Shown here: piece after piece, positions 4,610-48,298 of the stretch
Numbering within the stretch: position 1 is the stretch's first letter
Layout of the letters: each line of letters begins with the position of its first letter
Origin: a virus
IMG/VR virus record: IMGVR_UViG_3300014645_000001
DNA: 50,194 bases
Direction: 5' to 3' (one strand)
The notes under the pieces: model-generated
What the model saw: only the letters and a program-made list of their open reading frames with translations
What the model was told of the DNA's origin: nothing
Database searches by the model: none
Made by a program: the position numbers and the translations under genes

Positions 4610-7165
4610 GTGGCCGGTTCGAGGATGACGTTCGTCGCCGAGTTCGTGGACCGGCTCACCGGGCCCTCCACGAAAGCCAAGAAGGCTGTGGAGGACCTTG
4701 GGAAAGCCACCGCTGAGGCCGCGAAGAAGTCGGAGCAGGCGAACCGTCGGGCCGAGTCCGCAGACCAGAAGCGTGCGTCGTCGTCAAGGCGGGCCGCTGA
4801 GGATGTGCGCCGGTCGGAGGGCAGGAAGGCCACCGCTACGGCTGGGGCTGCGACTGCGGCGGAGCGTGCTTCCCGTACGGTGGAGGGCGCTGAACGCCGT
4901 CAGCAGCGGGCGTCCAGGGACACTGCGACTGCTGTGGGGCGTTCCACTGGTCAGCAGCGGCGTGCGTCGCAGACCACCGCGCAGGCGATCCAGAATCATG
5001 GGAGGCGCATCAACACCACGCTCGGGGGCACCCGGTCGGCGTCGGCGCGCACGGCGGACGCGATTCAGCAGATGGCGGGCCGCTCGAACCGTGCCGTGTC
5101 GGGGATGCAGCGGGGCATGGACCGGGTGAACCCGGGGCGCATGGCTTCCCGGTACAACTCTGCGCTGGGGCGGATGCTGTCCCGCACGGAGCAGGTGTCG
5201 GGGAAGATCCAGGGGCACCTGGACAAGATCAGCAACTCTGGTGCTGTGCGCGGCGCCCAGGTCGGCGCGACCGTCGTTGGTGGCATGGCCCTGGCTGGTG
5301 GCGCGAAGCGTATCGCGGACGTGCAGCAGGCCGACGTGGTCATGCAAACCATGGGCCTCAGCGACGCTGACCGTGGGAAGCTGATCGGCCAGTACAAGGG
5401 CCTCGCGCAGAACACCCCCTACTCCACCGGCGCTATCTCCATGCTCGGCTCCGGTCTACTCTCCGCCGGCATGTCACAGGACGACCTGCAAGGCGCGTTG
5501 AAGGGCGCGATCAACACCGGTGCCCTGTACGGCATGTCCCTGGAGGACATTGCCCTGCCGCTGAAGCAGATCCAGGCTAAGGGCAAACTGCAGGGCGACG
5601 ACGTGAACCAGCTCGTGGACCGGGGTATCCCGATCTACAAGTGGATCGCGGAGCAGAAGGGCGTGGACCAGTCCAAGATCCCGGACCTGGTGTCGAAGGG
5701 CCAGGTGTCCTCGGATGACGTGTTCAAGGCGCTGGCGAAGAACTCGGAGGGCGGCGCGGAGAAGGCCGCGGGCACACTGAAGGGTTCGTGGACTAACTTC
5801 TTGTCCTCCATCTCGCAGGGCGGTGAGGCGTTCCTGACCCCGCTGGTGGGCCCGCTCACGGACCTGTTGAAGGGCGCGAAGGACACGATCTCGGCTATGA
5901 AACCGGCCTTGTCGATCCTGGGGCAGGTTACCGGGGTGATCGTGAAGGGTCTCACCCCTGCCCTGCCGGTGCTGATCCCCTTGGTGGTGGGGCTCGGTGG
6001 TGGCCTGCTGGCTCTGGCGGTGGCGGCGAAGGCTGCCCTAGTGGTCAAATCGTTGGCTACCGGGCTTGGGCTGCTCCGTAGCTTCCTGGGTGGGCGCGGT
6101 CGTGGTCGGGGTGCGACGGGCGCTGTCGGCCTGTTCACGGAGTTCCTCGGTGGTATGCGTGACGGCGCCCGGGAAGCCTACGGGCAGCGTGGCCTCGGTG
6201 GGCTCAATGCGGGCCTCGATACAGCCACGAAGAAGATGGGCAAAGCCCAGGGATCGGCGAAAGGTCTGATGGGGTCACTCCGTGGCATGGGCGGACTGGC
6301 CGCTACCGCCGGGGGTCTCCTCGGCGGCATGGCATTGGGGGGCACTTCGAGTATCAACGCCGACCTGAACCCGGAGGGTGCGGCGAACAACATTAAGACC
6401 GGCGGGGACGTAAACGCCGAGTTCAAGGACAAGGAATGGGCTAACAAGAACGGGTCCATCCTGGGCGGCACAATGTCCGGGGTCAACGGTATCGGCGACG
6501 TGGTGAACAAGAAACAGCACATGGGTGCTGGGGACAAGTTCGCCGGCTGGTTCGGTGACGGGAAGTTCTTCGGCTACAAGGACGGGTGGCAGAAGGGTTT
6601 CGACTCCCTCTCCGAGCAGGACTCTGCGCTGGCCGGCCTGGTTGGCACCCCTGAAGCTGGAACCAGGTGGAATTCGATCCTCGCGGACGTGCAACGTACC
6701 GGTTCCTCTCCGCAGGACGCGTTGGCGTCGTTCCCGGAGTACAAGGCCGCGGTCACGGACCGGTTGTCGAACCTCACCCCACCGGTGAAGGCCGACGACA
6801 ACACTCTGTTGCAGTACATGGGCAACACTGCCGGGTACCGCAATGGCGGTTTCACCGGGATGGGCGCGGCGTCCGCGCCGGCTGGTGTGGTGCATGGCCG
6901 TGAGTACGTGATGCCGGAGTCGGTGACTTCCCGGCCGGGGATGCTCCCGGCGTTGCGTCAGATCCACCGGACCGGGGAGGTGCCGCGCACCTATCACGGT
7001 GACACCACCAGCGTGCAGGTCAATGTGAACGCTGCTGGTGCGACTGTGGAGGCCGCACAGGCTGTGGGGCAGAGCGTGGAGGAAGCCGTGAACCGGGTGC
7101 TGGCACGCCGTGAGCGCCGGGCGTCTAACCGGCATGGTACGAGGGAATTGAGGGGTGCGAACTGA
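4610..7165 (+). CDS. tape measure protein
   Basis: 851 aa with an Ala/Arg-rich coiled N-terminal region and central Gly-rich TM-like segments. Canonical position after the chaperone pair. RBS AAGGAG plus GTG start. Confidence 0.85.
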   Translation: MAGSRMTFVAEFVDRLTGPSTKAKKAVEDLGKATAEAAKKSEQANRRAESADQKRASSSRRAAEDVRRSEGRKATATAGAATAAERASRTVEGAERRQQRASRDTATAVGRSTGQQRRASQTTAQAIQNHGRRINTTLGGTRSASARTADAIQQMAGRSNRAVSGMQRGMDRVNPGRMASRYNSALGRMLSRTEQVSGKIQGHLDKISNSGAVRGAQVGATVVGGMALAGGAKRIADVQQADVVMQTMGLSDADRGKLIGQYKGLAQNTPYSTGAISMLGSGLLSAGMSQDDLQGALKGAINTGALYGMSLEDIALPLKQIQAKGKLQGDDVNQLVDRGIPIYKWIAEQKGVDQSKIPDLVSKGQVSSDDVFKALAKNSEGGAEKAAGTLKGSWTNFLSSISQGGEAFLTPLVGPLTDLLKGAKDTISAMKPALSILGQVTGVIVKGLTPALPVLIPLVVGLGGGLLALAVAAKAALVVKSLATGLGLLRSFLGGRGRGRGATGAVGLFTEFLGGMRDGAREAYGQRGLGGLNAGLDTATKKMGKAQGSAKGLMGSLRGMGGLAATAGGLLGGMALGGTSSINADLNPEGAANNIKTGGDVNAEFKDKEWANKNGSILGGTMSGVNGIGDVVNKKQHMGAGDKFAGWFGDGKFFGYKDGWQKGFDSLSEQDSALAGLVGTPEAGTRWNSILADVQRTGSSPQDALASFPEYKAAVTDRLSNLTPPVKADDNTLLQYMGNTAGYRNGGFTGMGAASAPAGVVHGREYVMPESVTSRPGMLPALRQIHRTGEVPRTYHGDTTSVQVNVNAAGATVEAAQAVGQSVEEAVNRVLARRERRASNRHGTRELRGAN

Positions 7166-23748: not shown

Positions 23749-24357
23749 ATGCAGTCTACACGAACCTGTTCGTTCCCCGGATGTGACAAGCCATGCAAGG
23801 GGCATGGTCTCTGTGCCGGGCATTATTCCCAACGGCGAAGGGGGCAGGACCTCAGGCCGCTGTGGGCTGAACGGTTGCCGCCGCGTAAGCGTCCCCTAGC
23901 AGAGCGATTCTGGGCAAAGGTTCAGAAAACTGACGAGTGCTGGTTGTGGACTGCATCGGGTGACACCTCCGGGTATGGGCGAGTTGTAGTTGACGGGCGG
24001 TTGTGCGGCGCGCATCGTGTGTCCTGGGAGCTCGCCAACGGACCCATCCCAGAAGGAATGTTCATCGACCACATGTGCCACAACCGGCGCTGCGTGAACC
24101 CCGAGCATCTACGACTCGTAACCAACGCGCAGAACATGCAGCACCGTAAAGGCGCGCCACGCAACAGTAAATCCGGCGTACGCGGTGTTTCTTGGGACAA
24201 ACAGATGAAGGCCTGGTGCGCCTATGCCAGCCTGAATGGCCGCCAGTACTGGGGTGGCTATCACTTGACTCTCGAAGAGGCTGACGCTGCCGCCAGGACT
24301 CTTCGCGCCCAGCTACACACTCACGACGACTATGAACAATGGGTGGCACAAAAATAG
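23749..24357 (+). CDS. HNH homing endonuclease (+ AP2-like domain)
   Basis: Motifs CSFPGCDKPCKGHGLCAGHY, FIDHMCHNRRCVNPEHL and the C-terminal GVRGVSWDKQMKAWCAY. RBS GGAAGGA. The region looks AT-richer. Confidence 0.8.
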   Translation: MQSTRTCSFPGCDKPCKGHGLCAGHYSQRRRGQDLRPLWAERLPPRKRPLAERFWAKVQKTDECWLWTASGDTSGYGRVVVDGRLCGAHRVSWELANGPIPEGMFIDHMCHNRRCVNPEHLRLVTNAQNMQHRKGAPRNSKSGVRGVSWDKQMKAWCAYASLNGRQYWGGYHLTLEEADAAARTLRAQLHTHDDYEQWVAQK

Positions 24358-24370
24358 TCGTGTCAAAAAC

Positions 24371-24399
24371 TTGTAATCAAAAAATATTGCGTGTAGGCT
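24371..24399 (+). promoter_or_regulatory. sigma-70-like promoter TTGTAA-N17-TAGGCT
   Basis: An AT-rich patch between the HNH stop and the HTH gene. The -35 is at 24371-24376, the -10 at 24394-24399, with a 17-nt spacer. Confidence 0.45.
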
Positions 24400-24430
24400 C
24401 GTGGGTACGAGGACAGGGAAGGAGGAAGAT

Positions 24431-24637
24431 GTGGACTACACGGCAACAGTCGCGAAGAACATCCGGGAAGCACTAGCCCGGACGCGCTATCGGGTGACCG
24501 ACATGGCCGCAGTTATCGGCAAGTCTCGGAACAGTGCAAGGGCGAAGTACAAGGGGACCACCCGGATCACCGTAGATGAACTCGGGGCCATTTCAGAATG
24601 GCTCAACACCCCCGTCGCAGACTTCTTCACCAGCTGA
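24431..24637 (+). CDS. Cro/CI-type (XRE-like) helix-turn-helix protein
   Basis: GTG start 5 nt after GGAAGGAGGA. RVTDMAAVIGKSRNSARAKYKG is HTH-like. 68 aa. Confidence 0.6.
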   Translation: MDYTATVAKNIREALARTRYRVTDMAAVIGKSRNSARAKYKGTTRITVDELGAISEWLNTPVADFFTS

Positions 24638-24877
24638 CAACAAGCTCGACCCATCCGGCCACACCAGCCGGGACCAGTGACCTTATGAGCCCTCCGGGGC
24701 GAAGGACACCGGGAACGAATAGACCGACTGACCGAACAGTACGGGCACCACGAGACACCGCGTGCGTGCCTACACAGCAGGGAGCACCCGACAGAGCGCG
24801 GGTTGGTACAGCCAATAGGGCCTTGCTTGGAGGGATAGGCAGTCGGAGTCACGCGGGTAGGTCCCCGCGTGCAATCA

Positions 24878-24920
24878 GCCGGGACAGGACGCACGGAGGG
24901 TTCGAGCCCCTCCCCCGGCA
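24878..24920 (+). ncRNA. tRNA-like acceptor/T-arm minihelix (no D or anticodon arm), copy A
   Basis: GCCGGG / 11-nt bulge ACAGGACGCAC / GGAGGG-TTCGAGC-CCCTCC / CCCGGC + A. The T-loop is canonical and no CCA is encoded. The architecture recurs at 45436-45478. Confidence 0.4.
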
Positions 24921-24949
24921 CTCACAACCCATCAACGAACGGAAACATC

Positions 24950-25267
24950 ATGCAACTGTTCATAGAGCACGAGGAAACAGTCGCCCGTGAGAAGTGGAAG
25001 AGGGACGCACTGGAGCTGATCGTTCAGCTCGCCAAAACGGGCCGGGAGTTCACCTCCGACGACCTGTACCAGGCCGGCCTCAAACCGGCACCGCACCCCA
25101 ACATGGTGGGCCCGGTGTTCTACCGGGCCATGAACCTCGGGTACATCATCCCCACTCACCGGGTGCGCCGTTCCGAACGGAAAGCCCGCCGCCACGGCTG
25201 GGTCGCCGAATACCGTGGCGCCCACCACATGACCACCAGCACCAACCAGAACACCAACACCCCATAG
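24950..25267 (+). CDS. hypothetical protein (105 aa)
   Basis: ATG start, high GC3, and the first ORF after the 312-nt spacer. Confidence 0.55.
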   Translation: MQLFIEHEETVAREKWKRDALELIVQLAKTGREFTSDDLYQAGLKPAPHPNMVGPVFYRAMNLGYIIPTHRVRRSERKARRHGWVAEYRGAHHMTTSTNQNTNTP

Positions 25268-26106: not shown

Positions 26107-26927
26107 GCCACGAACTGCAGTTCATGGAGAAGGCCCACCGGTACAAGATGCGCACCCCGCAAGGAGTGCTCGCCCAGGTGCCTGGTGTGACCACACTGAT
26201 CGGCGGCGGGATCCCCAAGCCAGCTTTGAACCCGTGGTACGCCCGGATGGTCGCCGAGTTCGTGGACCAGAACCCGCTGGAGGTGGAGCGCCTGCGGTCC
26301 CTACCCCCCGTACAACACCAGGGGCGGGAACGTTCCGCGTTGGTGGACGCCTTGTGCAAGGTGCCCACCGCGAAACGTGACAGTGCAGCCGAACGCGGCA
26401 CCCAAATCCACGCACTCGCCGAGAAAGTTGTGGCCGGCGATGAGGTTGCCGTGCCCGTGGAGCACGATGGGGAGGTCACCGGGTACGCTGAGTTCCTGGA
26501 CACCTGGGACATCACCCCGCTGGTCGTGGAAGGCCGGGGCGCGAACGCCACTGAATTCTATGCTGGGACGTTCGACCTAATCGCTACTTCACCGCATTGG
26601 GATGGTGTGGCTCTCCTGGATATCAAGACTTCAAACGGTGTCTATGGGGAGACAGCGATCCAGACAGCGGCATATGCCAAGTTTGAGTTCTACTTGGACA
26701 AGAATGGTAAGGAACAACCGATGCCGAAGATCGAGCGTACGTTCGTTGCTCACATCATGCCGTTCGGGACGGACCTCCACCCGCTCTGTACTTCGCCTGC
26801 TGAGATCGAGGAAGCATACCGCCAGTTCCTGTGTGCGGCGTACATCACGAAGACCGCGAAGCGCCGCAAAGATTTCCTGCGCGACCCGCTCCCCGCCCCC
26901 AATACCGGACAGAAGGAGGCCGCATGA
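26103..26927 (+). CDS. PD-(D/E)XK (RecB/Cas4-like) exonuclease
   Basis: GTGA-coupled start. Motifs GTQIHALAE, FDLIA...LLDIKTS and TAIQTAAYA (QxxxY). Confidence 0.7.
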   Translation: MSHELQFMEKAHRYKMRTPQGVLAQVPGVTTLIGGGIPKPALNPWYARMVAEFVDQNPLEVERLRSLPPVQHQGRERSALVDALCKVPTAKRDSAAERGTQIHALAEKVVAGDEVAVPVEHDGEVTGYAEFLDTWDITPLVVEGRGANATEFYAGTFDLIATSPHWDGVALLDIKTSNGVYGETAIQTAAYAKFEFYLDKNGKEQPMPKIERTFVAHIMPFGTDLHPLCTSPAEIEEAYRQFLCAAYITKTAKRRKDFLRDPLPAPNTGQKEAA

Positions 26928-27502
26928 GTCAATGGCGCCCTGTCCCCGGCTGGGAAGGTTTCTACGAGGTATCCGATGACGGACAGGTCAAGTCGCTGGA
27001 ACGTGTGGTCCCCCACCCGCGGTGGGGTACCATGCGCATGAAAGAGCGGATGCTTAAACCAGGAATCGGCGGCGATGGGTATCCGTCCGTAGTGCTTCAC
27101 GACAACGGCAGACGGTCCTCGTCAAAGGTGCACCGTCTTGTTCTCCTCGCCTTTGTCGGGCCTTGCCCAGCAGGTATGGAGGGATGCCACTGGGACGACA
27201 ACAAGACCAACAACACCCTGGGTAATCTCCGGTGGGCGCCACGCTCCGAGAACCTCAGAGACCAGGTCCGGAACGGCCGCCACATCATGGGGGCGAGAAC
27301 CCACTGCCCGCGTGGCCATGCATTAGTCGAGCCCAACTTGACGGCAAGTGGTATCCGGCACGGTCGCCGCAGGTGCCTATCTTGTGCCCGCACACGGAAT
27401 TACATCCGCAATCACGAGCAACGGAACGGCGAGACGTTCACAGTCCTGGAAGCGCAAACAATTTCCGACCAGTACCACCAAAAGATCACGAAGGAGAATT
27501 AA
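26924..27502 (+). CDS. HNH endonuclease (NUMOD4 + HNH_3 type) inserted between the exonuclease and RecT genes
   Basis: WRPVPGWEGFYEVSDDGQVKS is NUMOD4. VHRLVLLAF...CHWDDNKTNNTLGNLRW is HNH. ATGA-coupled upstream. Confidence 0.8.
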   Translation: MSQWRPVPGWEGFYEVSDDGQVKSLERVVPHPRWGTMRMKERMLKPGIGGDGYPSVVLHDNGRRSSSKVHRLVLLAFVGPCPAGMEGCHWDDNKTNNTLGNLRWAPRSENLRDQVRNGRHIMGARTHCPRGHALVEPNLTASGIRHGRRRCLSCARTRNYIRNHEQRNGETFTVLEAQTISDQYHQKITKEN

Positions 27503-43162: not shown

Positions 43163-43515
43163 TTCCTGACCCTATTGGGGACGCGTGGTTGTACCACTGG
43201 TCTCCGAATACCCGACACAAGGGGATCAGCAGGTACGGTCTCGTACCCGGCAAGCAGTCGGTGTGTGGGGTTTGGCGTCCCCCATATGTGGCGTTCGGGT
43301 TGAACCCCATGAATGCGTGGGAAATGTCCGGCGCCATCCACCCCGAGGTGACCGAATGGGACCTATGGTCCGTGCACACGGATTCACTAACGGGGTGGGA
43401 GGTGATTCCCTTTGACAATGGGGAACCGCGTGAGGTCCGGGTGTATGATCCGGTGCCAGGGCGGGAACTATTCTACGTGGGCGTTCGTGCCCAGGAGGTG
43501 TCTGACCGGGGATGA
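43159..43515 (+). CDS. small putative ADP-ribosyltransferase-fold (H-Y-E type) protein
   Basis: LYHWS, PPYVAFG and EVRVYDPVP...LFYV are arranged like the PARP/Tpt1/DarT H-Y-E triad. ATGA-coupled on both sides and immediately upstream of MuF. Confidence 0.35.
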   Translation: MIPDPIGDAWLYHWSPNTRHKGISRYGLVPGKQSVCGVWRPPYVAFGLNPMNAWEMSGAIHPEVTEWDLWSVHTDSLTGWEVIPFDNGEPREVRVYDPVPGRELFYVGVRAQEVSDRG

Positions 43516-44387
43516 CTATTGACCTGCAGGATGAGCTGACGGCCCGGATCTCGGAGTTGTTGGCGGATGAGTTGGTGATCCTCGCGGAAGCAGGGGACGG
43601 GGCCAGTGTTCCGTGGGCTACCCGCCCGTTGTCGGAACAGGAGCAGGCGTCCGGGGTGAGGTTCGGGGAGATCCACGGGCTGCAGGAGACCCTACTCGAA
43701 GCCGTGGAGCCGGTGCTGGCTGGGTTGTCGGCGGTGACGGTGGCTGCGGTGGTGGGTGCTGCGGGTCGGTCCGCGAAGGACATGCTCGCGACCCTGGCGG
43801 CGTGGCGTGTGGAGTTGCCGGCGTCGGTGGCGGATGAGGTGGCTCGTGCGCTACCCGTCGTGGAGGACGCATTGGCATCCTCGTTCCGTGAGTCCTCCAG
43901 GCTCGTAGTCAAGGAAGCTGCACGGCAGGGCGTGAAACTCGCCCCCGTGGTGGAGCAGCCCGCCTGGGTGCGTGACCTCGCGGAGACTGTCACCGGGAAA
44001 CCTGTGGCACGTGTCCTGGACGTTGCGAGGGACCTGCACACCGCGCCCTCGGCGGTGGTCACCCCACCTGCACCCGAGGCCGTACAAGAGGCGTTGGAGG
44101 GTATCTCCCCCAAGGGTCCCGTGGACGTGGCACGGCAAGCGAATCACGCTGTCGTCAACGCGGGCCGGGTCGAGACATGGGAAGCGAACGATACTAAGCC
44201 GTCCATGTGGTATGCAAGCGAACTTGCTGATTCCAGGTCATGTTCCCGCTGCCTTGAGATTGATGGCGTCGAGTGGACGACCCTGGAAGAAGTGCGTGCC
44301 AACTATGGGCAAGGCGGGGGCTATGTGCTCTGCGAGGGCGGGCCGGGGCGGTGCAGGGGAACTGCGGTGGCGGTGTACGTGGACTGA
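43512..44387 (+). CDS. MuF-like minor capsid protein
   Basis: The C-terminal WYASELADSRSCSRCLEIDGVEW motif is typical of Phage_Mu_F / SPP1 gp7. It lies after the portal gene. Confidence 0.75.
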   Translation: MTIDLQDELTARISELLADELVILAEAGDGASVPWATRPLSEQEQASGVRFGEIHGLQETLLEAVEPVLAGLSAVTVAAVVGAAGRSAKDMLATLAAWRVELPASVADEVARALPVVEDALASSFRESSRLVVKEAARQGVKLAPVVEQPAWVRDLAETVTGKPVARVLDVARDLHTAPSAVVTPPAPEAVQEALEGISPKGPVDVARQANHAVVNAGRVETWEANDTKPSMWYASELADSRSCSRCLEIDGVEWTTLEEVRANYGQGGGYVLCEGGPGRCRGTAVAVYVD

Positions 44388-44456: not shown

Positions 44457-44478
44457 TGACCACTAGCAAGGAGTGGCT

Positions 44479-45216
44479 ATGGAAGAGACTACCAGACTGT
44501 GCAGCGTAGAGGGATGCAACCGTAAGTACCGTTGCATGGGGTACTGCGGAATGCACTACGGACGCCTCCGATCTGGCGGACAGGTGGGCCCAGCTCACTC
44601 GATGCAACGCAAACCCCAGGAATGCGAAGCTGACGGGTGCGGAGAGAGTGCAAAATACTCCGGCCTGTGCCGTTACCACTGGTACCACCGTAAGCGGGTC
44701 GAAGAGGTGGAAGCCGGAGACTACTACCGGATCTATAGCTGGGCCACGAACGAAGAGCGTCTCCAGGCTAAAGGGTGGACGGAATCCGTGGTCGTGCCCG
44801 AGCTTGGGCCGTGCTGGGAATGGAATGGCCTGCGGGACAAACGTGGGTATGGGCGCATCTGCGTGGCGGGCCGAAAGATGCGGTTCGCACACCGGATCTC
44901 TTACATGACTTGGGTTGGTGACCTTGAGCCCTCAGAGTACATCTGTCACATGTGCGATAACCCACCCTGCATCAACCCCGCGCATCTCTTCCCGGGCGAT
45001 CAGACGAAGAACATGTCTGATGCGGCCCGCAAAGACCGTACCGCCTACGGCGTGCTCCAGGGCCAATCTAAATTGACCGACGAAATGGTTCGAGAGATCA
45101 GAGAGCGGTACGTGCCCCGAAAGGTGTCTCAAGCGTATCTAGCGGCGGAGTACGGGGTGAGCCAGGCGACTATCAACAAGGTGGTACGAGGCAAGACTTG
45201 GCAGCGTGTCGCATAG
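44479..45216 (+). CDS. HNH homing endonuclease (zinc-ribbon repeats + HNH + C-terminal HTH)
   Basis: RBS AAGGAG. Motifs CSVEGCNRKYRCMGYCGMHY, CEADGCGESAKYSGLCRYHW, ICHMCDNPPCINPAHL and YGVSQATINKVVRG. The region looks AT-richer. Confidence 0.8.
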   Translation: MEETTRLCSVEGCNRKYRCMGYCGMHYGRLRSGGQVGPAHSMQRKPQECEADGCGESAKYSGLCRYHWYHRKRVEEVEAGDYYRIYSWATNEERLQAKGWTESVVVPELGPCWEWNGLRDKRGYGRICVAGRKMRFAHRISYMTWVGDLEPSEYICHMCDNPPCINPAHLFPGDQTKNMSDAARKDRTAYGVLQGQSKLTDEMVREIRERYVPRKVSQAYLAAEYGVSQATINKVVRGKTWQRVA

Positions 45217-45253: not shown

Positions 45254-45324
45254 GCGGCAGTGGTGCAGTGGTAGCACGGCGGTCTCCAAAACCGCAGGCC
45301 GAGGTTCGATTCCTCGCTGCTGTG
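45254..45324 (+). tRNA. tRNA-Trp (anticodon CCA), no encoded 3' CCA
   Basis: Manual cloverleaf: acceptor GCGGCAG/CTGCTGT (two G-U pairs), D arm GTGC-AGTGGTA-GCAC, anticodon arm GCGGT-CTCCAAA-ACCGC, 4-nt variable loop, T arm CGAGG-TTCGATT-CCTCG, discriminator G. Confidence 0.8.
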
Positions 45325-45435
45325 CGTAGGTCCGACGGTCTCCTGCGACAAGCGGGGGCTGTTCACTGACGCCAGGATGGCCTCTGGCGAAAACGTGAGC
45401 CCTTTCCCTGTGGGGCCGGATATCTGGTACAGGGA

Positions 45436-45478
45436 GCGGTGACTGGCAGGCACCAGGGTTCGAGCCCCTGGCACCGCA
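45436..45478 (+). ncRNA. tRNA-like acceptor/T-arm minihelix, copy B
   Basis: GCGGTG / 11-nt bulge ACTGGCAGGCA / CCAGGG-TTCGAGC-CCCTGG / CACCGC + A. The geometry matches 24878-24920 with compensatory stem changes. Confidence 0.4.
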
Positions 45479-45483
45479 CATTG

Positions 45484-45526
45484 ACCGGGGCGTACGCGTC
45501 GCAGGACGTTACGCGCCCCGGTTTTC
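45484..45526 (+). terminator. intrinsic terminator after the tRNA / minihelix region
   Basis: ACCGGGGCG...CGCCCCGGT followed by TTTT. Confidence 0.55.
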
Positions 45527-45610
45527 CTTACCCCAGGGTACAGAGGCGCCCCTACCCCTCACAGGGTGGGGGCCTACCCATACAGCCGGTTCTTCTAGTA
45601 GGATGGTCCC

Positions 45611-45937
45611 ATGGGAATCCCGGAGATTCAGGCAGAATCGCTTCGACTGGTCAAGCAGTGGACAGCGGAGCGTAAAGCGATCCTTGACCGGAATGAAGAG
45701 TGGCGGCGGCGCTGGGAAGATCTGGGGGAGGACACGCCGGCTGACGAGATGCCCTCTGAGCTGTTCAAGATCCACGAGCCGGTAGAATGCTCCTACGACC
45801 CGAAGGTCATGCTGTGTAGAGAGTGCTATGAGACGTCCCCCGCGTGGATGGAGGAAGAGCCTGAGCAACGCGAATGGCCCTGCCCGACAGCCCGGGCTAT
45901 TGTTGGCTTCCTTGTCCCTGCCTGGGTGTTCGAGTAA
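45611..45937 (+). CDS. hypothetical protein (108 aa); possibly a leaderless transcript
   Basis: A TAGGAT -10-like hexamer at 45599-45604 lies 6 nt before the ATG, and there is no RBS. The region looks AT-richer. Confidence 0.5.
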   Translation: MGIPEIQAESLRLVKQWTAERKAILDRNEEWRRRWEDLGEDTPADEMPSELFKIHEPVECSYDPKVMLCRECYETSPAWMEEEPEQREWPCPTARAIVGFLVPAWVFE

Positions 45938-45959
45938 GACACGGTTCGTCAGGCCCCCG

Positions 45960-45987
45960 CCCCCACCTTTCAGGTGGGGGTCTTTTG
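45960..45987 (+). terminator. classical rho-independent terminator
   Basis: CCCCCACC-TTTCA-GGTGGGGG followed by TCTTTTG. Confidence 0.75.
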
Positions 45988-46007
45988 TATTGTCATACGG
46001 TAGAGTC

Positions 46008-47096
46008 GTGTTTGCATCATCATCTTTAGGGCGGGACGGTCACGTGGGAGTAGCGCATCTGGATAAAGCTCGTGCGGTGAAGAACGACGAGTTCTACACG
46101 CAGCGGGTGGACGTGGACCGGGGTATGGCACAGTTCACGGACCGTGACCCGGGCGTGTTCCGGGGTAAGACGGTTCTGTTGCCGTGTGATGACCCGGAGT
46201 GGAGCGCGTTCACCGCCCACTTCCTGGACAACTTCCACGCCTACGGGCTGGCGCGTCTAATCTCTACGTGCTACGCGAAACCCACCGAGATCATGGGCGA
46301 GCAACCCCGTGGTAGGGTGCTGGACACCACCACGGGCGACGAGTCCTGGTCGTATCTGGACGGGGATGGTGACTTCCGCAGCACGGAGGTCACAGCGTAC
46401 CGGGACCAGGCGGATGTGGTTATCACGAACCCGCCGTTCTCTCAGCTCAACGAATTCATGGGGTGGGTTACCGGGGCGGACGCCAGTGTGGCTGTTGTTG
46501 CCCCGGTGGCTGCTCTCGGGTACCGGGGGGTGTTTCCGCATATCCAGTCTGGGCGGGTGTGGGTAGGGGACGCGGCGTATCGTGCGCCGTCCCGGTTCCT
46601 CGTCCCTGATAACCAGGGCGTCAAGGATGTGTCCTCGGTATGGTTGACCAGTGTTGCGTCGAACCCGAGGTGCCATAGTCCTCTCCCATTGAGGGCCATG
46701 GCGGAGAACCGGGCACTGGCTGATGGGAAGCGGTCTGCACGTTTCTTGTACCGGGGCTACGTCAACTGCCCTGCGATGGAGGTTCCGCGTGTTGAGTGGG
46801 TACCAGATGACTATGAGGGGCTGATGGGTGTGCCTCTGAGTTTCTTGCAGAAGCACCCGCCGCACCAGTTCGAGTTGGTTGGCATCGCGTCCCAATATGA
46901 CCCATGGTTCAAAGCGCATGGCAAAAAGTACGGGCAACAGCGGTGTTGCCGGGACGGTGAGCTGGTGCGAGTCGCCAATAATCTTGACAAGGGCGGCGTT
47001 TTCATCCACGACCCTGAGCCCGGTGACTACTACGCCGAAGTCCAAGGTGTGCCTCATGTGGGCACGTTTACCCGGGTGATTATCCGCAGGCGGTGA
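46008..47096 (+). CDS. adenine-specific DNA methyltransferase, EcoRI-methylase-like family
   Basis: Motifs NDEFYTQ, GKTVLLPCDDPEWSAF and catalytic VVITNPPFS. The start (GTG 46008 or 46044) is uncertain. Confidence 0.65.
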   Translation: MFASSSLGRDGHVGVAHLDKARAVKNDEFYTQRVDVDRGMAQFTDRDPGVFRGKTVLLPCDDPEWSAFTAHFLDNFHAYGLARLISTCYAKPTEIMGEQPRGRVLDTTTGDESWSYLDGDGDFRSTEVTAYRDQADVVITNPPFSQLNEFMGWVTGADASVAVVAPVAALGYRGVFPHIQSGRVWVGDAAYRAPSRFLVPDNQGVKDVSSVWLTSVASNPRCHSPLPLRAMAENRALADGKRSARFLYRGYVNCPAMEVPRVEWVPDDYEGLMGVPLSFLQKHPPHQFELVGIASQYDPWFKAHGKKYGQQRCCRDGELVRVANNLDKGGVFIHDPEPGDYYAEVQGVPHVGTFTRVIIRRR

Positions 47097-47146
47097 CACG
47101 CGGGCTGTGCCTGACGTGGGGGTGTGGTTGGTGTCATGGTGGGGTC

Positions 47147-48298
47147 ATGACGACCGTAGATTTTAGGGGAGTTCCCCTGTGTCGTGCCGGCGAATGGCAT
47201 GGGCTCACTGGCAAGGCCACCGTGACCCCGGAGGACCTGGCCGCCGTGGTGGACGCGTACCAGGACCGTGAGGTGGATCGTGCGCGGGTGAAGCTGGGGC
47301 ACGTGTCTTCTCTGAATGACCAGGCCCTTGGGGATGGGGCGCCGGCGTTCGGGTGGGTTGACAACCCCCGTGTCTCCGAGGATGGCAAGACCCTGCTGGG
47401 TGACCTGGTGGATGTGCCCCGCCGTCTCGGGGAGGTCGTGGGCCGCGCCTACAAGAACGTGTCCGTGGAGCTCCGGAAGAACGTGCGCACGCCCTCGGGG
47501 AAGACTCACCCGACGGTGCTGTCCGGGCTGGCGCTGCTCGGTGCCGCCGCGCCCGCCGTGAAGGGCCTGGACGACCTGGTAGCCCTGTACGCCTCCGAAC
47601 CGATCCCCGATGCTCCCACTGACGGGTGCGAGGACGGTGCCGTGGTCACCATCAGCCTTGGTGACGCCCTTGATCCGGTGACACATGCCGACATCCCCGT
47701 GCCGTCCCCTGTGGCGTGCGACGGTGTTCAAGACAGCCCGGATCGCCCGGGCCGAGAAAAGGAAGGAGAGCCGTCCATGGCTTTTCTTGACCAGGCCCGC
47801 GAGAAGTTCGGGCTGCCCGCTGACGCATCTGAGGATCAGATCCTCGAACGCATGACCGCACTGTCCGAGGCACCCGCGGCTGAAGGTGACAACACCGACG
47901 ACACCGAGGGCACCGACGAGAACGTTGCTGAGACCTCCACGGAGGGTAAGGCCAGCCCGGAGACCGTTACCGTGTCCAAGGCTGTCCTCGACGAGATGAA
48001 CGCTCGCATTGCTGAGCTTGACGCCGAGGCGAAGGCCCGCCGTGAAGCCGAGGCTGTGAAGCACCGTGACGAGGTGATCGCTGCGGCACTGTCCGAGGGG
48101 CGTATCGCGCCTTCCGAGCGTGAGCACTGGGTTACCGCACTGTCTGCCGCCCCGGAGGCTAATGAGAAGCTCATTACTTCTCTCGCGCCCCGGGTGAACG
48201 TCACCGAACGTGGCTCCGACGTGGCCCTGTCCGCAGGCTTCACCGACCAGGCCGCGGACGAGCTCGACTCGTTCCTCGACAGCCTCAACCTCAGCTAA
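47147..48298 (+). CDS. capsid maturation protease (Mu gpI-like) with in-frame C-terminal scaffold domain
   Basis: The N-terminus CRAGEWHGLTGKATVTPEDLAAVVDAY...PAFGWVDNPRVSEDGKTLLGDL is Mu-like_Pro-like. The C-terminus is Ala/Glu-rich and coiled-coil. Confidence 0.7.
   Translation: MTTVDFRGVPLCRAGEWHGLTGKATVTPEDLAAVVDAYQDREVDRARVKLGHVSSLNDQALGDGAPAFGWVDNPRVSEDGKTLLGDLVDVPRRLGEVVGRAYKNVSVELRKNVRTPSGKTHPTVLSGLALLGAAAPAVKGLDDLVALYASEPIPDAPTDGCEDGAVVTISLGDALDPVTHADIPVPSPVACDGVQDSPDRPGREKEGEPSMAFLDQAREKFGLPADASEDQILERMTALSEAPAAEGDNTDDTEGTDENVAETSTEGKASPETVTVSKAVLDEMNARIAELDAEAKARREAEAVKHRDEVIAAALSEGRIAPSEREHWVTALSAAPEANEKLITSLAPRVNVTERGSDVALSAGFTDQAADELDSFLDSLNLS
47777..48298 (+). CDS. nested in-frame scaffold protein (Mu gpZ / lambda Nu3-style)
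   Basis: An internal ATG is preceded by GGAAGGAGAG with 6-nt spacing. It shares frame and stop with the protease. Confidence 0.5.
   Translation: MAFLDQAREKFGLPADASEDQILERMTALSEAPAAEGDNTDDTEGTDENVAETSTEGKASPETVTVSKAVLDEMNARIAELDAEAKARREAEAVKHRDEVIAAALSEGRIAPSEREHWVTALSAAPEANEKLITSLAPRVNVTERGSDVALSAGFTDQAADELDSFLDSLNLS

Follow-up and report, generated by a model that had tools for sequence, protein, structure and literature searches.

Two transfer RNA-like minihelices in an Arthrobacter-type siphophage genome belong to a multi-copy element family widespread in phages

Background

A minihelix made of an acceptor-like stem and a T arm of the transfer RNA (tRNA) type, with no cloverleaf D or anticodon arms, occurs at two places in an Arthrobacter-type siphophage genome (IMG/VR record IMGVR_UViG_3300014645_000001; 50,194 nucleotides (nt), 64% GC), hereafter called the window, which means the whole stretch of DNA that was analysed. 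The question raised by these two loci, here called copy A and copy B, is what such reduced tRNA-like structures are and what they might do between the genes of a phage. An earlier note, made from the letters of the window alone, had described both structures and had proposed, among other roles, a recognition module for tRNA-end-processing enzymes, a decoy for tRNA-directed host defences or the remains of internally deleted tRNA genes. We find that both copies are members of a large multi-copy family widespread in phages, and that the 11-nt "bulge" of the first description, whose content had gone unseen there, is the most informative part of the element: it holds a base pair, a GG dinucleotide and a 2-base-pair (bp) pseudoknot to the T-loop. 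As to function, we tentatively favour, at a probability of about 0.42, the reading that both elements are phage-borne RNA mimics of the upper half of a tRNA and would be substrates of tRNA-end-processing enzymes, punctuating the transcripts that carry them.

The two minihelices and known RNA families

Both minihelices are present exactly at the coordinates first given for them, in a genome in which essentially all genes lie on the + strand. Each consists of an outer, acceptor-like stem (P1), an 11-nt strand (J), an inner stem (P2) and a T-loop. The scores below were obtained with model R1, a covariance model built from a 74-sequence alignment that excluded the window and its relatives.

24878-24921, + strand: copy A minihelix (29.8 bits, E=1.5e-5), a divergent family member
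24878-24883 and 24914-24919: P1 of copy A, GCCGGG/CCCGGC
24884-24894: J strand of copy A, ACAGGACGCAC
24895-24900 and 24908-24913: P2 of copy A, GGAGGG/CCCTCC
24901-24907: T-loop of copy A, TTCGAGC; A24920 and C24921 stand 3' of P1
45436-45479, + strand: copy B minihelix (56.6 bits, E=1.4e-12), a canonical family member
45436-45441 and 45472-45477: P1 of copy B, GCGGTG/CACCGC
45442-45452: J strand of copy B, ACTGGCAGGCA
45453-45458 and 45466-45471: P2 of copy B, CCAGGG/CCCTGG
45459-45465: T-loop of copy B, TTCGAGC; A45478 and C45479 stand 3' of P1

The earlier note had read the structure correctly: an acceptor-like stem and a T arm stacked coaxially into a minihelix, with a bulge on the 5' side, a T-loop and an A left unpaired. 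In both copies a tRNA-type T arm with a G-TTCRA-NN-C loop (GGGTTCGAGCCCC) sits on the acceptor-like stem, giving 6+6 stacked pairs followed by the unpaired A, and the spacing between P1 and P2 is 11 nt. No CCA is encoded after either copy, as had been observed, the 3' letters being ACT and ACA. The motif GGTTCRANYCC occurs three times in the window (in copies A and B and in a tRNA-Trp gene), against an expectation of 0.53. Scanning both strands of the window with R1, with filters off, returned exactly two sites, A and B; the next best reached 13 bits, and there is no further family copy above that score in the window.

The proposed checks with ARAGORN and Rfam were run. ARAGORN reports no tRNA or transfer-messenger RNA (tmRNA) at either copy, its only call in the window being the tRNA-Trp at 45254-45325, which is also the only feature to reach an Rfam gathering score. 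Even with E<=10 allowed, the Rfam tRNA family RF00005 matched neither copy. Identity as a tRNA was therefore rejected, being negative in ARAGORN and in Rfam at both gathering and permissive thresholds. A tmRNA was rejected as well, with ARAGORN negative and the third P1 pair being C:G in copy A and G:C in copy B; a G:U pair at this position is rare family-wide, and G3:U70 is not conserved. The sole permissive Rfam match on the minihelices was mascRNA-menRNA (RF01684), with 13.8 bits for copy A and 22.1 bits for copy B; as both lie far under the gathering score of 42.5, membership in that family was rejected.

A multi-copy family supported by covariation

Using a pattern drawn from the bases common to copies A and B (ACNGG-N8-AGGGTTCGAGCCCCT), a strict scan of IMG/VR found 15 loci, of which 13 share the architecture but differ in their stems, which remain complementary; the other two are real tRNA-Ala genes. 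A looser pattern found at least 120 loci, many of them multi-copy. In the 74-sequence alignment, 99.5% of the cells pair and double (compensatory) changes occur at 10 of the 13 pairs; none of 500 shuffles reached the observed pairing value and no slid register came near it. Thus, selection on structure, which had been argued from the two copies of the window, is borne out at the level of the family by copies from other phages.

The layout of the family from 5' to 3' is A, P1, an 11-nt J, P2, the loop TTCGAGN, P2', P1' and R-C. P1 begins with G and is 5 bp long in 180 of 199 distinct copies and 6-7 bp in the others; P2 has 6 bp ending in GGG/CCC. The consensus of J is A-N-N-G-G-C-A-N-N-C-A, in which J4 and J5 are GG in every copy by definition, since the searches required them. 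The J and loop positions that pair with one another played no part in the selection of sequences. Among these, J2:J8 is a Watson-Crick pair in 190 of the 199 copies (C-G 133, A-T 27, G-C 25, T-A 5) and has the top mutual information among all position pairs. J9 is paired with position 7 of the T-loop (L7) in 180 of 199 (A-T 94, G-C 55, C-G 15, T-A 5, G-T 11), and J10:L6 is mostly C-G, with some G-C and A-T variants. The stems P1 and P2, together with J2:J8 and J9:L7, are thus supported by covariation. Mismatches in the stems are 80 G.T against 8 A.C, which argues that the fold is read on the sense strand, i.e., in RNA. The flanks are also constrained and look like those of a tRNA gene: A precedes P1 in 66% of the copies (position -1), and the three positions after P1 show R at +1 (94%), C at +2 (92%) and a depletion of C at +3 (11%).

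Both copies of the window have the A at -1 and the A-C after P1, and both have the J2:J8 pair, as C2:G8 around AGGAC in copy A and around TGGCA in copy B. Copy B also forms J9:L7 as G:C and J10:L6 as C:G, so that all of its pairs are present. Copy A, which keeps P1, P2, the T-loop and GG, shows C.C and A.G at these two positions, and its relatives form only J10:L6 (A:T); copy A is thus a divergent or degenerate member of the family.

Distribution and genomic placement

A search of GenBank phages with the 45-nt consensus gave 893 places in 157 records. These records comprise 113 Streptomyces phages (R4-like/Camvirus phages such as Joe, phiCAM, phiHau3, Lika and Izzy, and others), mostly with 4-9 places each, 25 Mycobacterium phages (e.g., Papyrus, Nilo, Konstantine, Oaker and Thumb; cluster H/R) and a few Gordonia phages. 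None of the element matches listed carries an annotation, and the few listed matches that fall under annotated features are low-coverage tRNA or coding matches. The window itself has no close DNA relative among GenBank phages, and the locus of copy A has neither a near nor a distant DNA match there.

The copies of a genome, 5-12 in number and concentrated in early operons, share one orientation in the phages inspected. The 8 copies of phiJoe are all on the minus strand, among the leftward genes gp65-gp79; in Papyrus, all 12 lie on the plus strand, 11 among genes 44-62 and one between genes 77 and 78. Placement between cistrons is also narrowly spaced in the 254 non-redundant copies analysed: P1 most often starts 6-8 nt past the upstream stop codon (92 of 191) and seldom less than 6 nt past it, and the next start codon follows P1 at 30-54 nt in 155 of 223. 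Such spacing would keep the fold just outside the footprints of the terminating ribosome and of the initiating 30S subunit. Copies A and B are intergenic and co-oriented with the genes, but they depart from the usual spacing after a stop codon, copy A standing 240 nt past one and copy B following a tRNA. Programmed readthrough or in-frame fusion was rejected, as phiJoe gp76 and gp75 are out of frame across the element (calculated by hand). The annotated starts of Papyrus (L161) genes 46 and 78 overlap minihelix copies at 2606-2653 and 23969-24016, and these starts are therefore probably mis-called.

A search of 185,579 species genomes with the conserved core gave no more than 23 stretches. None of these is a normal tRNA gene, and they stand in prophage-like contexts of Actinomycetota, Bacteroidota, Gemmatimonadota and Planctomycetota. 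Any cellular partner would therefore need to be conserved across four phyla. The GC-rich element is kept even in genomes of 34-46% GC, where the neighbouring genes differ by locus. Across the family we found no conserved neighbouring gene, association with tRNA genes is mostly absent, and upstream of the element there is no family-wide promoter motif. The sigma-70 scans gave nothing.

Several contigs carry tandem arrays of 4-7 units, free of open reading frames (ORFs), with a period of about 115 nt:

L149, 6787-7450, - strand: tandem array
L021, 6611-7005: tandem array
L095, 1603-2984: tandem array
L078, 10008-11363: tandem array

These arrays could represent a dedicated sponge RNA or an RNA that serves as a precursor of several units. 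Their spacers are G-rich, with heptad-like (T/C)GGCA(A/G)GGC repeats resembling the J strand YGGCAGNC. The array of L095 adjoins a conserved gene of about 190 amino acids (aa), phrog_4652, which has no Pfam match and is confined to the array-bearing group; similar ORFs lie by the arrays of L149 and L078. In L021 and L149, ARAGORN makes a false 94-nt "tRNA-Ala(ggc)" call on minihelix T arms.

No description of the element was found in the literature, although an earlier mention in Smith et al. 2013 (J Bacteriol, R4-like phages) is possible; the element is apparently undescribed and without an Rfam family. Mimics of tRNA as such were already known, and what is distinct here is the miniature architecture and its phage-wide, multi-copy, intercistronic use.

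Copy A and its structured spacer

Copy A lies in the early region of the window, in a 312-nt spacer between a Cro-like gene and the next gene:

23749-24357: HNH gene (HNH_3 with AP2) upstream of the Cro-like gene
24431-24637, + strand: Cro/C1-type helix-turn-helix (HTH) gene (Pfam HTH_26, E=7.9e-6); the ORF opens at 24401
24638-24847, + strand: lineage-specific structured noncoding RNA between the Cro-like stop codon and the conserved hairpin
24655-24671 and 24674-24712: predicted hairpins
24724-24733/24838-24846: predicted long-range helix enclosing a branched domain
24743-24752/24761-24771 and 24776-24782/24821-24827: predicted helices of the branched domain
24848-24872, + strand: conserved hairpin with loop TAGGTC, 5-6 nt 5' of copy A; inverted repeat complementary at 8 of 8 positions
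24950-25267, + strand: gene (ORF) of 105 aa, starting 30 nt past P1 of copy A

The Cro-like gene likely starts at GTG 24431, after GGAGG, as judged from the alignment with L001 and L002. Directly 5' of it, an AT-rich patch (24371-24399) contains a promoter-like TTGTAA-17 nt-TAGGCT, on which a simple sigma-70 scan made no call. The homologues of the 105-aa gene are in Arthrobacter and Streptomyces phages, where some are annotated as HTH DNA-binding proteins, and its distance from copy A falls in the usual 30-54 nt range of the family.

The locus of copy A has five relatives (L001, L002, L162, L163 and L164). In four of them (L001, L002, L162 and L164), identity is about 98% from the middle of the Cro-like gene through the minihelix, whereas the sequences diverge on either side, in the 5' half of that gene and 3' of the minihelix. 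The fifth, L163, is divergent and carries compensatory changes in P2, from GGAGGG/CCCTCC to TAGGGG/CCCCTG. The hairpin CACGCGGG-TAGGTC-CCCGCGTG, found at 24850-24871 as claimed, has compensatory double changes at six of nine pairs in L163 and L164, and its loop is changed at one base only, in L164. RNAalifold predicted 76 pairs on the relatives, 17 of them compensatory, mostly owing to L163; the long-range helix 24724-24733/24838-24846 and the inner helices also carry such changes.

The spacer had been regarded as noncoding and structured, which is upheld. It is covered only by Arg/Pro-rich shadow ORFs, and the indels of L163 are not multiples of three and break every reading frame; a coding spacer was thus rejected. 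Together with the covariation, these indels indicate that the spacer is a conserved structured RNA of about 240 nt ending in a hairpin and a tRNA-like module. By its MFE (minimum free energy), the 312-nt spacer is unexceptional (z = -1.24), and its structural support comes instead from covariation in the relatives. Homologues of the invariant 5' part of the spacer were found only in two contigs, both of this lineage; A-type variants elsewhere in IMG/VR belong to the same lineage, other matches being chance or tRNAs.

Two further observations concern possible pairing partners of copy A. The 10-mer CAGCCGGGAC occurs at 24665-24674 and again at 24876-24885, the 5' strand of P1 being thereby duplicated 211 nt upstream, and GAGCCCTCCG at 24687-24696 is complementary to the 5' strand of P2 (24894-24903). 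Alternative pairings that mask the minihelix may therefore exist, or these matches may be due to chance in GC-rich sequence.

Copy B and its tRNA island

Copy B lies in an island between a MuF-like gene (43512-44387) and a Mu-like protease gene (47093-48298), in which an HNH gene, tRNA-Trp, a 110-nt spacer, copy B, a terminator-like hairpin with TTTT, a small gene and an EcoRI-like methyltransferase gene follow one another:

44473-45216, + strand: HNH endonuclease gene (Pfam HNH_3, zf-His_Me_endon, HTH_3)
45254-45325, + strand: tRNA-Trp(CCA) (ARAGORN; Rfam tRNA, 67 bits), 110 nt 5' of copy B
45406-45434, + strand: stem-loop CCCTGT...ACAGGG (sequence, MFE fold), 1 nt 5' of copy B
45484-45529, + strand: intrinsic-terminator-like hairpin (MFE fold), with arms 45484-45492/45514-45522 complementary at 9 of 9 positions, then TTTTCCTT

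The terminator-like hairpin begins 5 nt 3' of copy B and has a loop of more than 8 nt, hence it was overlooked by a simple scan. No homologues were found for the gene downstream of copy B. Just 3' of the small gene (45611-45937) is another, strong terminator-like site (45959-45991), with a 10-bp stem (GCCCCCACC/GGTGGGGGT) followed by CTTTTGTATT; it falls within the 5' portion of the long ORF 45828-47096. As the EcoRI-like methylase domain of this ORF begins at residue 78, the true start of the methylase is probably downstream. The acceptor stem of tRNA-Trp is followed by G-C-G-T (45325-45328), i.e., the same R-C-(T/G) pattern as after P1 in the family, and this pattern may be a shared 3'-processing signal.

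In the relative L165, whose MuF protein is 82% identical, the same genomic position (6224-6266) is occupied by a copy whose stems are the same and whose J has one base inserted; a hairpin (CCCAG-GACG-CTGGG) directly precedes it. L165 also has a second minihelix at 5976-6027, between the MuF gene and the B-type copy (GCGAC...GCCGGG-TTCGAGT-CCCGGC-GTCGC-ACG, J about 20 nt), and a tRNA-Leu(CAA) at 6386-6460, 3' of the B-type copy. The island is thus a cluster in which tRNAs and tRNA-like elements vary, and the element of this lineage behaves as one of the genes in such a small tRNA island would.

The earlier note had pointed out that a stem-loop and an HNH gene precede both copies. This is true of the window, but neither is a general feature of the family, and at copy A the Cro-like gene sits between the HNH gene and the minihelix. 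The window has three HNH genes, 23749-24357 (HNH_3 and AP2), 26831-27502 (NUMOD4 and HNH_3) and 44473-45216 (HNH_3 and HTH_3), of which two are upstream of minihelix copies.

A putative tRNA-elbow mimic as a proposed processing signal

By analogy with tRNA, P1 would stack on P2 with a continuous 3' strand, forming an acceptor/T-arm-like helix of 11-12 bp capped by the T-loop. The J2:J8 pair that closes N-G-G-C-A would be a one-pair "mini D-arm", from which GG would dock on the T-loop as G18 and G19 do in tRNA, and J9 and J10 would pair with T-loop positions 7 and 6, the equivalents of tRNA nucleotides 60 and 59. The predicted product is a tRNA elbow and acceptor end lacking the anticodon and D arms. 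RNase P, RNase Z and the CCA-adding enzyme read the acceptor/T-arm helix and the elbow, and the anticodon and D arms are dispensable for them.

On the processing-signal reading, the element would be transcribed inside phage messenger RNAs (mRNAs) and recognised by host enzymes that measure the distance from the elbow to the acceptor end. RNase P would cut on the 5' side of P1, and trimming of the 3' end and the addition of CCA might take place after the conserved R-C. Polycistronic phage transcripts would thereby be cut at gene boundaries and a mini-tRNA of about 45 nt released. Copy A would set the 3' end of the Cro mRNA and its structured tail of about 240 nt, leaving the conserved hairpin near the new 3' end, and copy B would act like a gene in a small tRNA operon (tRNA-Trp, B, terminator).

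This reading is supported by an elbow preserved at structural cost, the 11-12 stacked pairs, the G at +1 (the first base of P1), the A at -1, the R-C tail, a placement that avoids ribosomes, conservation in four phyla and the presence of B-type copies among tRNA genes. In addition, copy A shares with MALAT1/mascRNA the order of structured RNA, hairpin and tRNA-like module. However, several observations weigh against it. Typical members, with a P1 of 5 bp, have 11 stacked pairs versus 12 in tRNA, and the depletion of C at +3 means that the contact of bacterial RNase P with a 3' RCCA would be incomplete. Copy A is without the pseudoknot pairs, and its homologue in L002 has an A.C mismatch in P2. 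If RNase P cut just past the stop codon, most of the upstream cistrons would lack a 3' hairpin to protect them. Finally, the ORF-free tandem arrays are unneeded for punctuating mRNAs and suggest a role of the released RNA itself.

Alternative explanations

The last point leads to the main rival, in which the element, released or within its transcript, is a decoy or sponge that titrates a host factor directed at the tRNA acceptor end or elbow. The mini-tRNA of about 45 nt, freed from phage transcripts by host tRNA enzymes, would then act in trans, in many copies, to disarm immunity or other factors aimed at these parts of tRNA, and the arrays would be sponge genes. Candidate targets are the MenT/AbiEii nucleotidyltransferases, toxic small alarmone synthetases (toxSAS; CapRel/FaRel2), HEPN RNases or another tRNA-binding enzyme. 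The 5-12 copies per genome, mostly in early operons, the arrays, the phage-specific distribution and the position of copy B in a tRNA-like operon would all suit this proposal, and both tRNA-directed immunity and phage tRNA counter-measures are established according to published accounts. However, P1 varies freely among copies, whereas the known acceptor-directed toxins read specific acceptor stems (as reported for FaRel2). Furthermore, the element does not encode CCA, we know of no defence system that an RNA of this kind counters, and a decoy would not need the tight intercistronic placement. We regard a decoy as rather unlikely, but both it and the tRNA-end-processing module are viable readings.

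Distinctly unlikely, in our view, is a purely structural mRNA element, comparable to REP (repetitive extragenic palindromic) elements or exonuclease-resistant RNA, which would block exonucleases working 3'-5' or 5'-3' (RNase J) or insulate cistrons with no involvement of tRNA enzymes. Its intercistronic position just beyond the ribosome footprints, its very stable GC-rich fold kept in genomes of low GC content, and its many copies in a single orientation would be expected of such an element. However, a plain hairpin would suffice for this purpose. The T-loop with its invariant GTTCGA, the GG, and the covariation of J2:J8 and of J9:L7 indicate that a specific three-dimensional shape has been selected across phyla; nor would this reading account for the A at -1 and the conservation of the R-C tail.

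The repeated, oriented and intergenic occurrence recalls other phage regulatory repeats, and motifs like the J strand (YGGCARGC) recur in the array spacers, as might be the case for a binding site of a phage-encoded RNA-binding protein (an antiterminator, a translational regulator or a nuclease). This explanation is improbable: the genes next to the low-GC copies inspected differ by locus, phrog_4652 is restricted to the array group, and conservation across phyla favours a universal host partner. Still less credence is due to a new small self-cleaving ribozyme with a core formed by the J strand and the T-loop pseudoknot. At about 45 nt, pseudoknotted, with highly conserved junction nucleotides and multi-copy in phages, the element is like known small ribozymes, but the conserved nucleotides are exactly those of a T-loop/D-loop mimic, and Rfam scans found no known ribozyme core; we consider it very improbable.

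A degenerate tRNA remnant, an attP core from the 3' end of a host tRNA or a DNA-level repeat, two of which the earlier note had entertained, can hardly be correct. The T arm and 3' acceptor strand do resemble a tRNA 3' end, and the conserved block of copy A stops right after CCCGGCAC. However, there is a 5' strand complementary to them, covariation of the stems and tertiary pairs extends over hundreds of copies, and G.T mismatches far outnumber A.C. The 23 genomic matches, from a search with the family core and not with the 3' half of copy A itself, include no normal tRNA gene, and no integrase is among the proteins scanned.

Comparison with known systems

If the element is a processing signal, its closest functional likeness, by analogy, would most probably be to mascRNA or to plant mitochondrial t-elements, i.e., to tRNA-like processing modules. 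Like the phage element, mascRNA/menRNA (MALAT1, NEAT1; RF01684) is a small tRNA-like module within a longer transcript, where RNase P forms the 3' end of the upstream RNA and trimming and a CCA tail follow; an upstream structure guards the new 3' end, and the hairpin and structured RNA of copy A form a similar layout. However, mascRNA is eukaryotic, nuclear, single-copy and a full small cloverleaf of about 56-61 nt, whereas the phage element has no D or anticodon stems and relies on the one-pair mini D-arm and the pseudoknot to T-loop positions 6 and 7. In plant mitochondrial t-elements and in the tRNA punctuation model of mitochondria, RNase P and RNase Z cut polycistronic transcripts at acceptor/T-arm-like structures or tRNAs that separate the coding regions. 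These systems are organellar, and processing has been demonstrated there, whereas the phage element is known here from its sequence; moreover, we know of no t-element with a conserved strand that mimics the D-loop.

The tRNA-like domain of tmRNA also combines an acceptor stem and a T arm with a short D-loop analogue and no anticodon arm. However, its acceptor strands are hundreds of nucleotides apart, enclosing the tag ORF and pseudoknots, and it needs for alanylation the G3:U70 pair that the phage family does not conserve. As regards placement, the RNase III sites of T7 early mRNA and the REP elements of E. coli are likewise repeated, oriented and structured intercistronic elements; the former recruit a host RNase to cut polycistronic mRNA, and the latter stabilise or modulate the flanking cistrons. 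They differ in being long irregular hairpins or palindromes, in the enzyme involved and in having no T-loop or tRNA mimicry. Finally, YrlA (Y-RNA-like) is a bacterial or phage-associated noncoding RNA reported to have a domain that mimics the acceptor/T/D region of tRNA (PMC4201824). It is like the phage element in doing without an anticodon arm. Unlike the phage element, YrlA is fused to a Ro-binding stem and encoded beside rsr, and is neither multi-copy nor intercistronic; permissive Rfam scans of copies A and B (E up to 10) returned no family of the Y-RNA type.

Conclusions

More than 100 sequenced Streptomyces, Mycobacterium and Gordonia phages carry the element, with several copies in each genome, and it is also present in prophage-like regions of at least four bacterial phyla. 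Its recognition also bears on gene calling, as some annotated start codons overlap it and occasional false 94-nt ARAGORN tRNAs fall on it. As a very small natural mimic of the tRNA elbow, in which one base pair appears to replace the D stem, it offers a compact test object for elbow recognition by RNase P, RNase Z, CCA-adding enzymes and other elbow readers. If it acts as a decoy, it would represent counter-defence of a new, RNA-based kind. Were it to recruit RNase P, actinophages would have in it a counterpart to the use of RNase III by T7, and the processing of long early operons of tiny genes would be explained.

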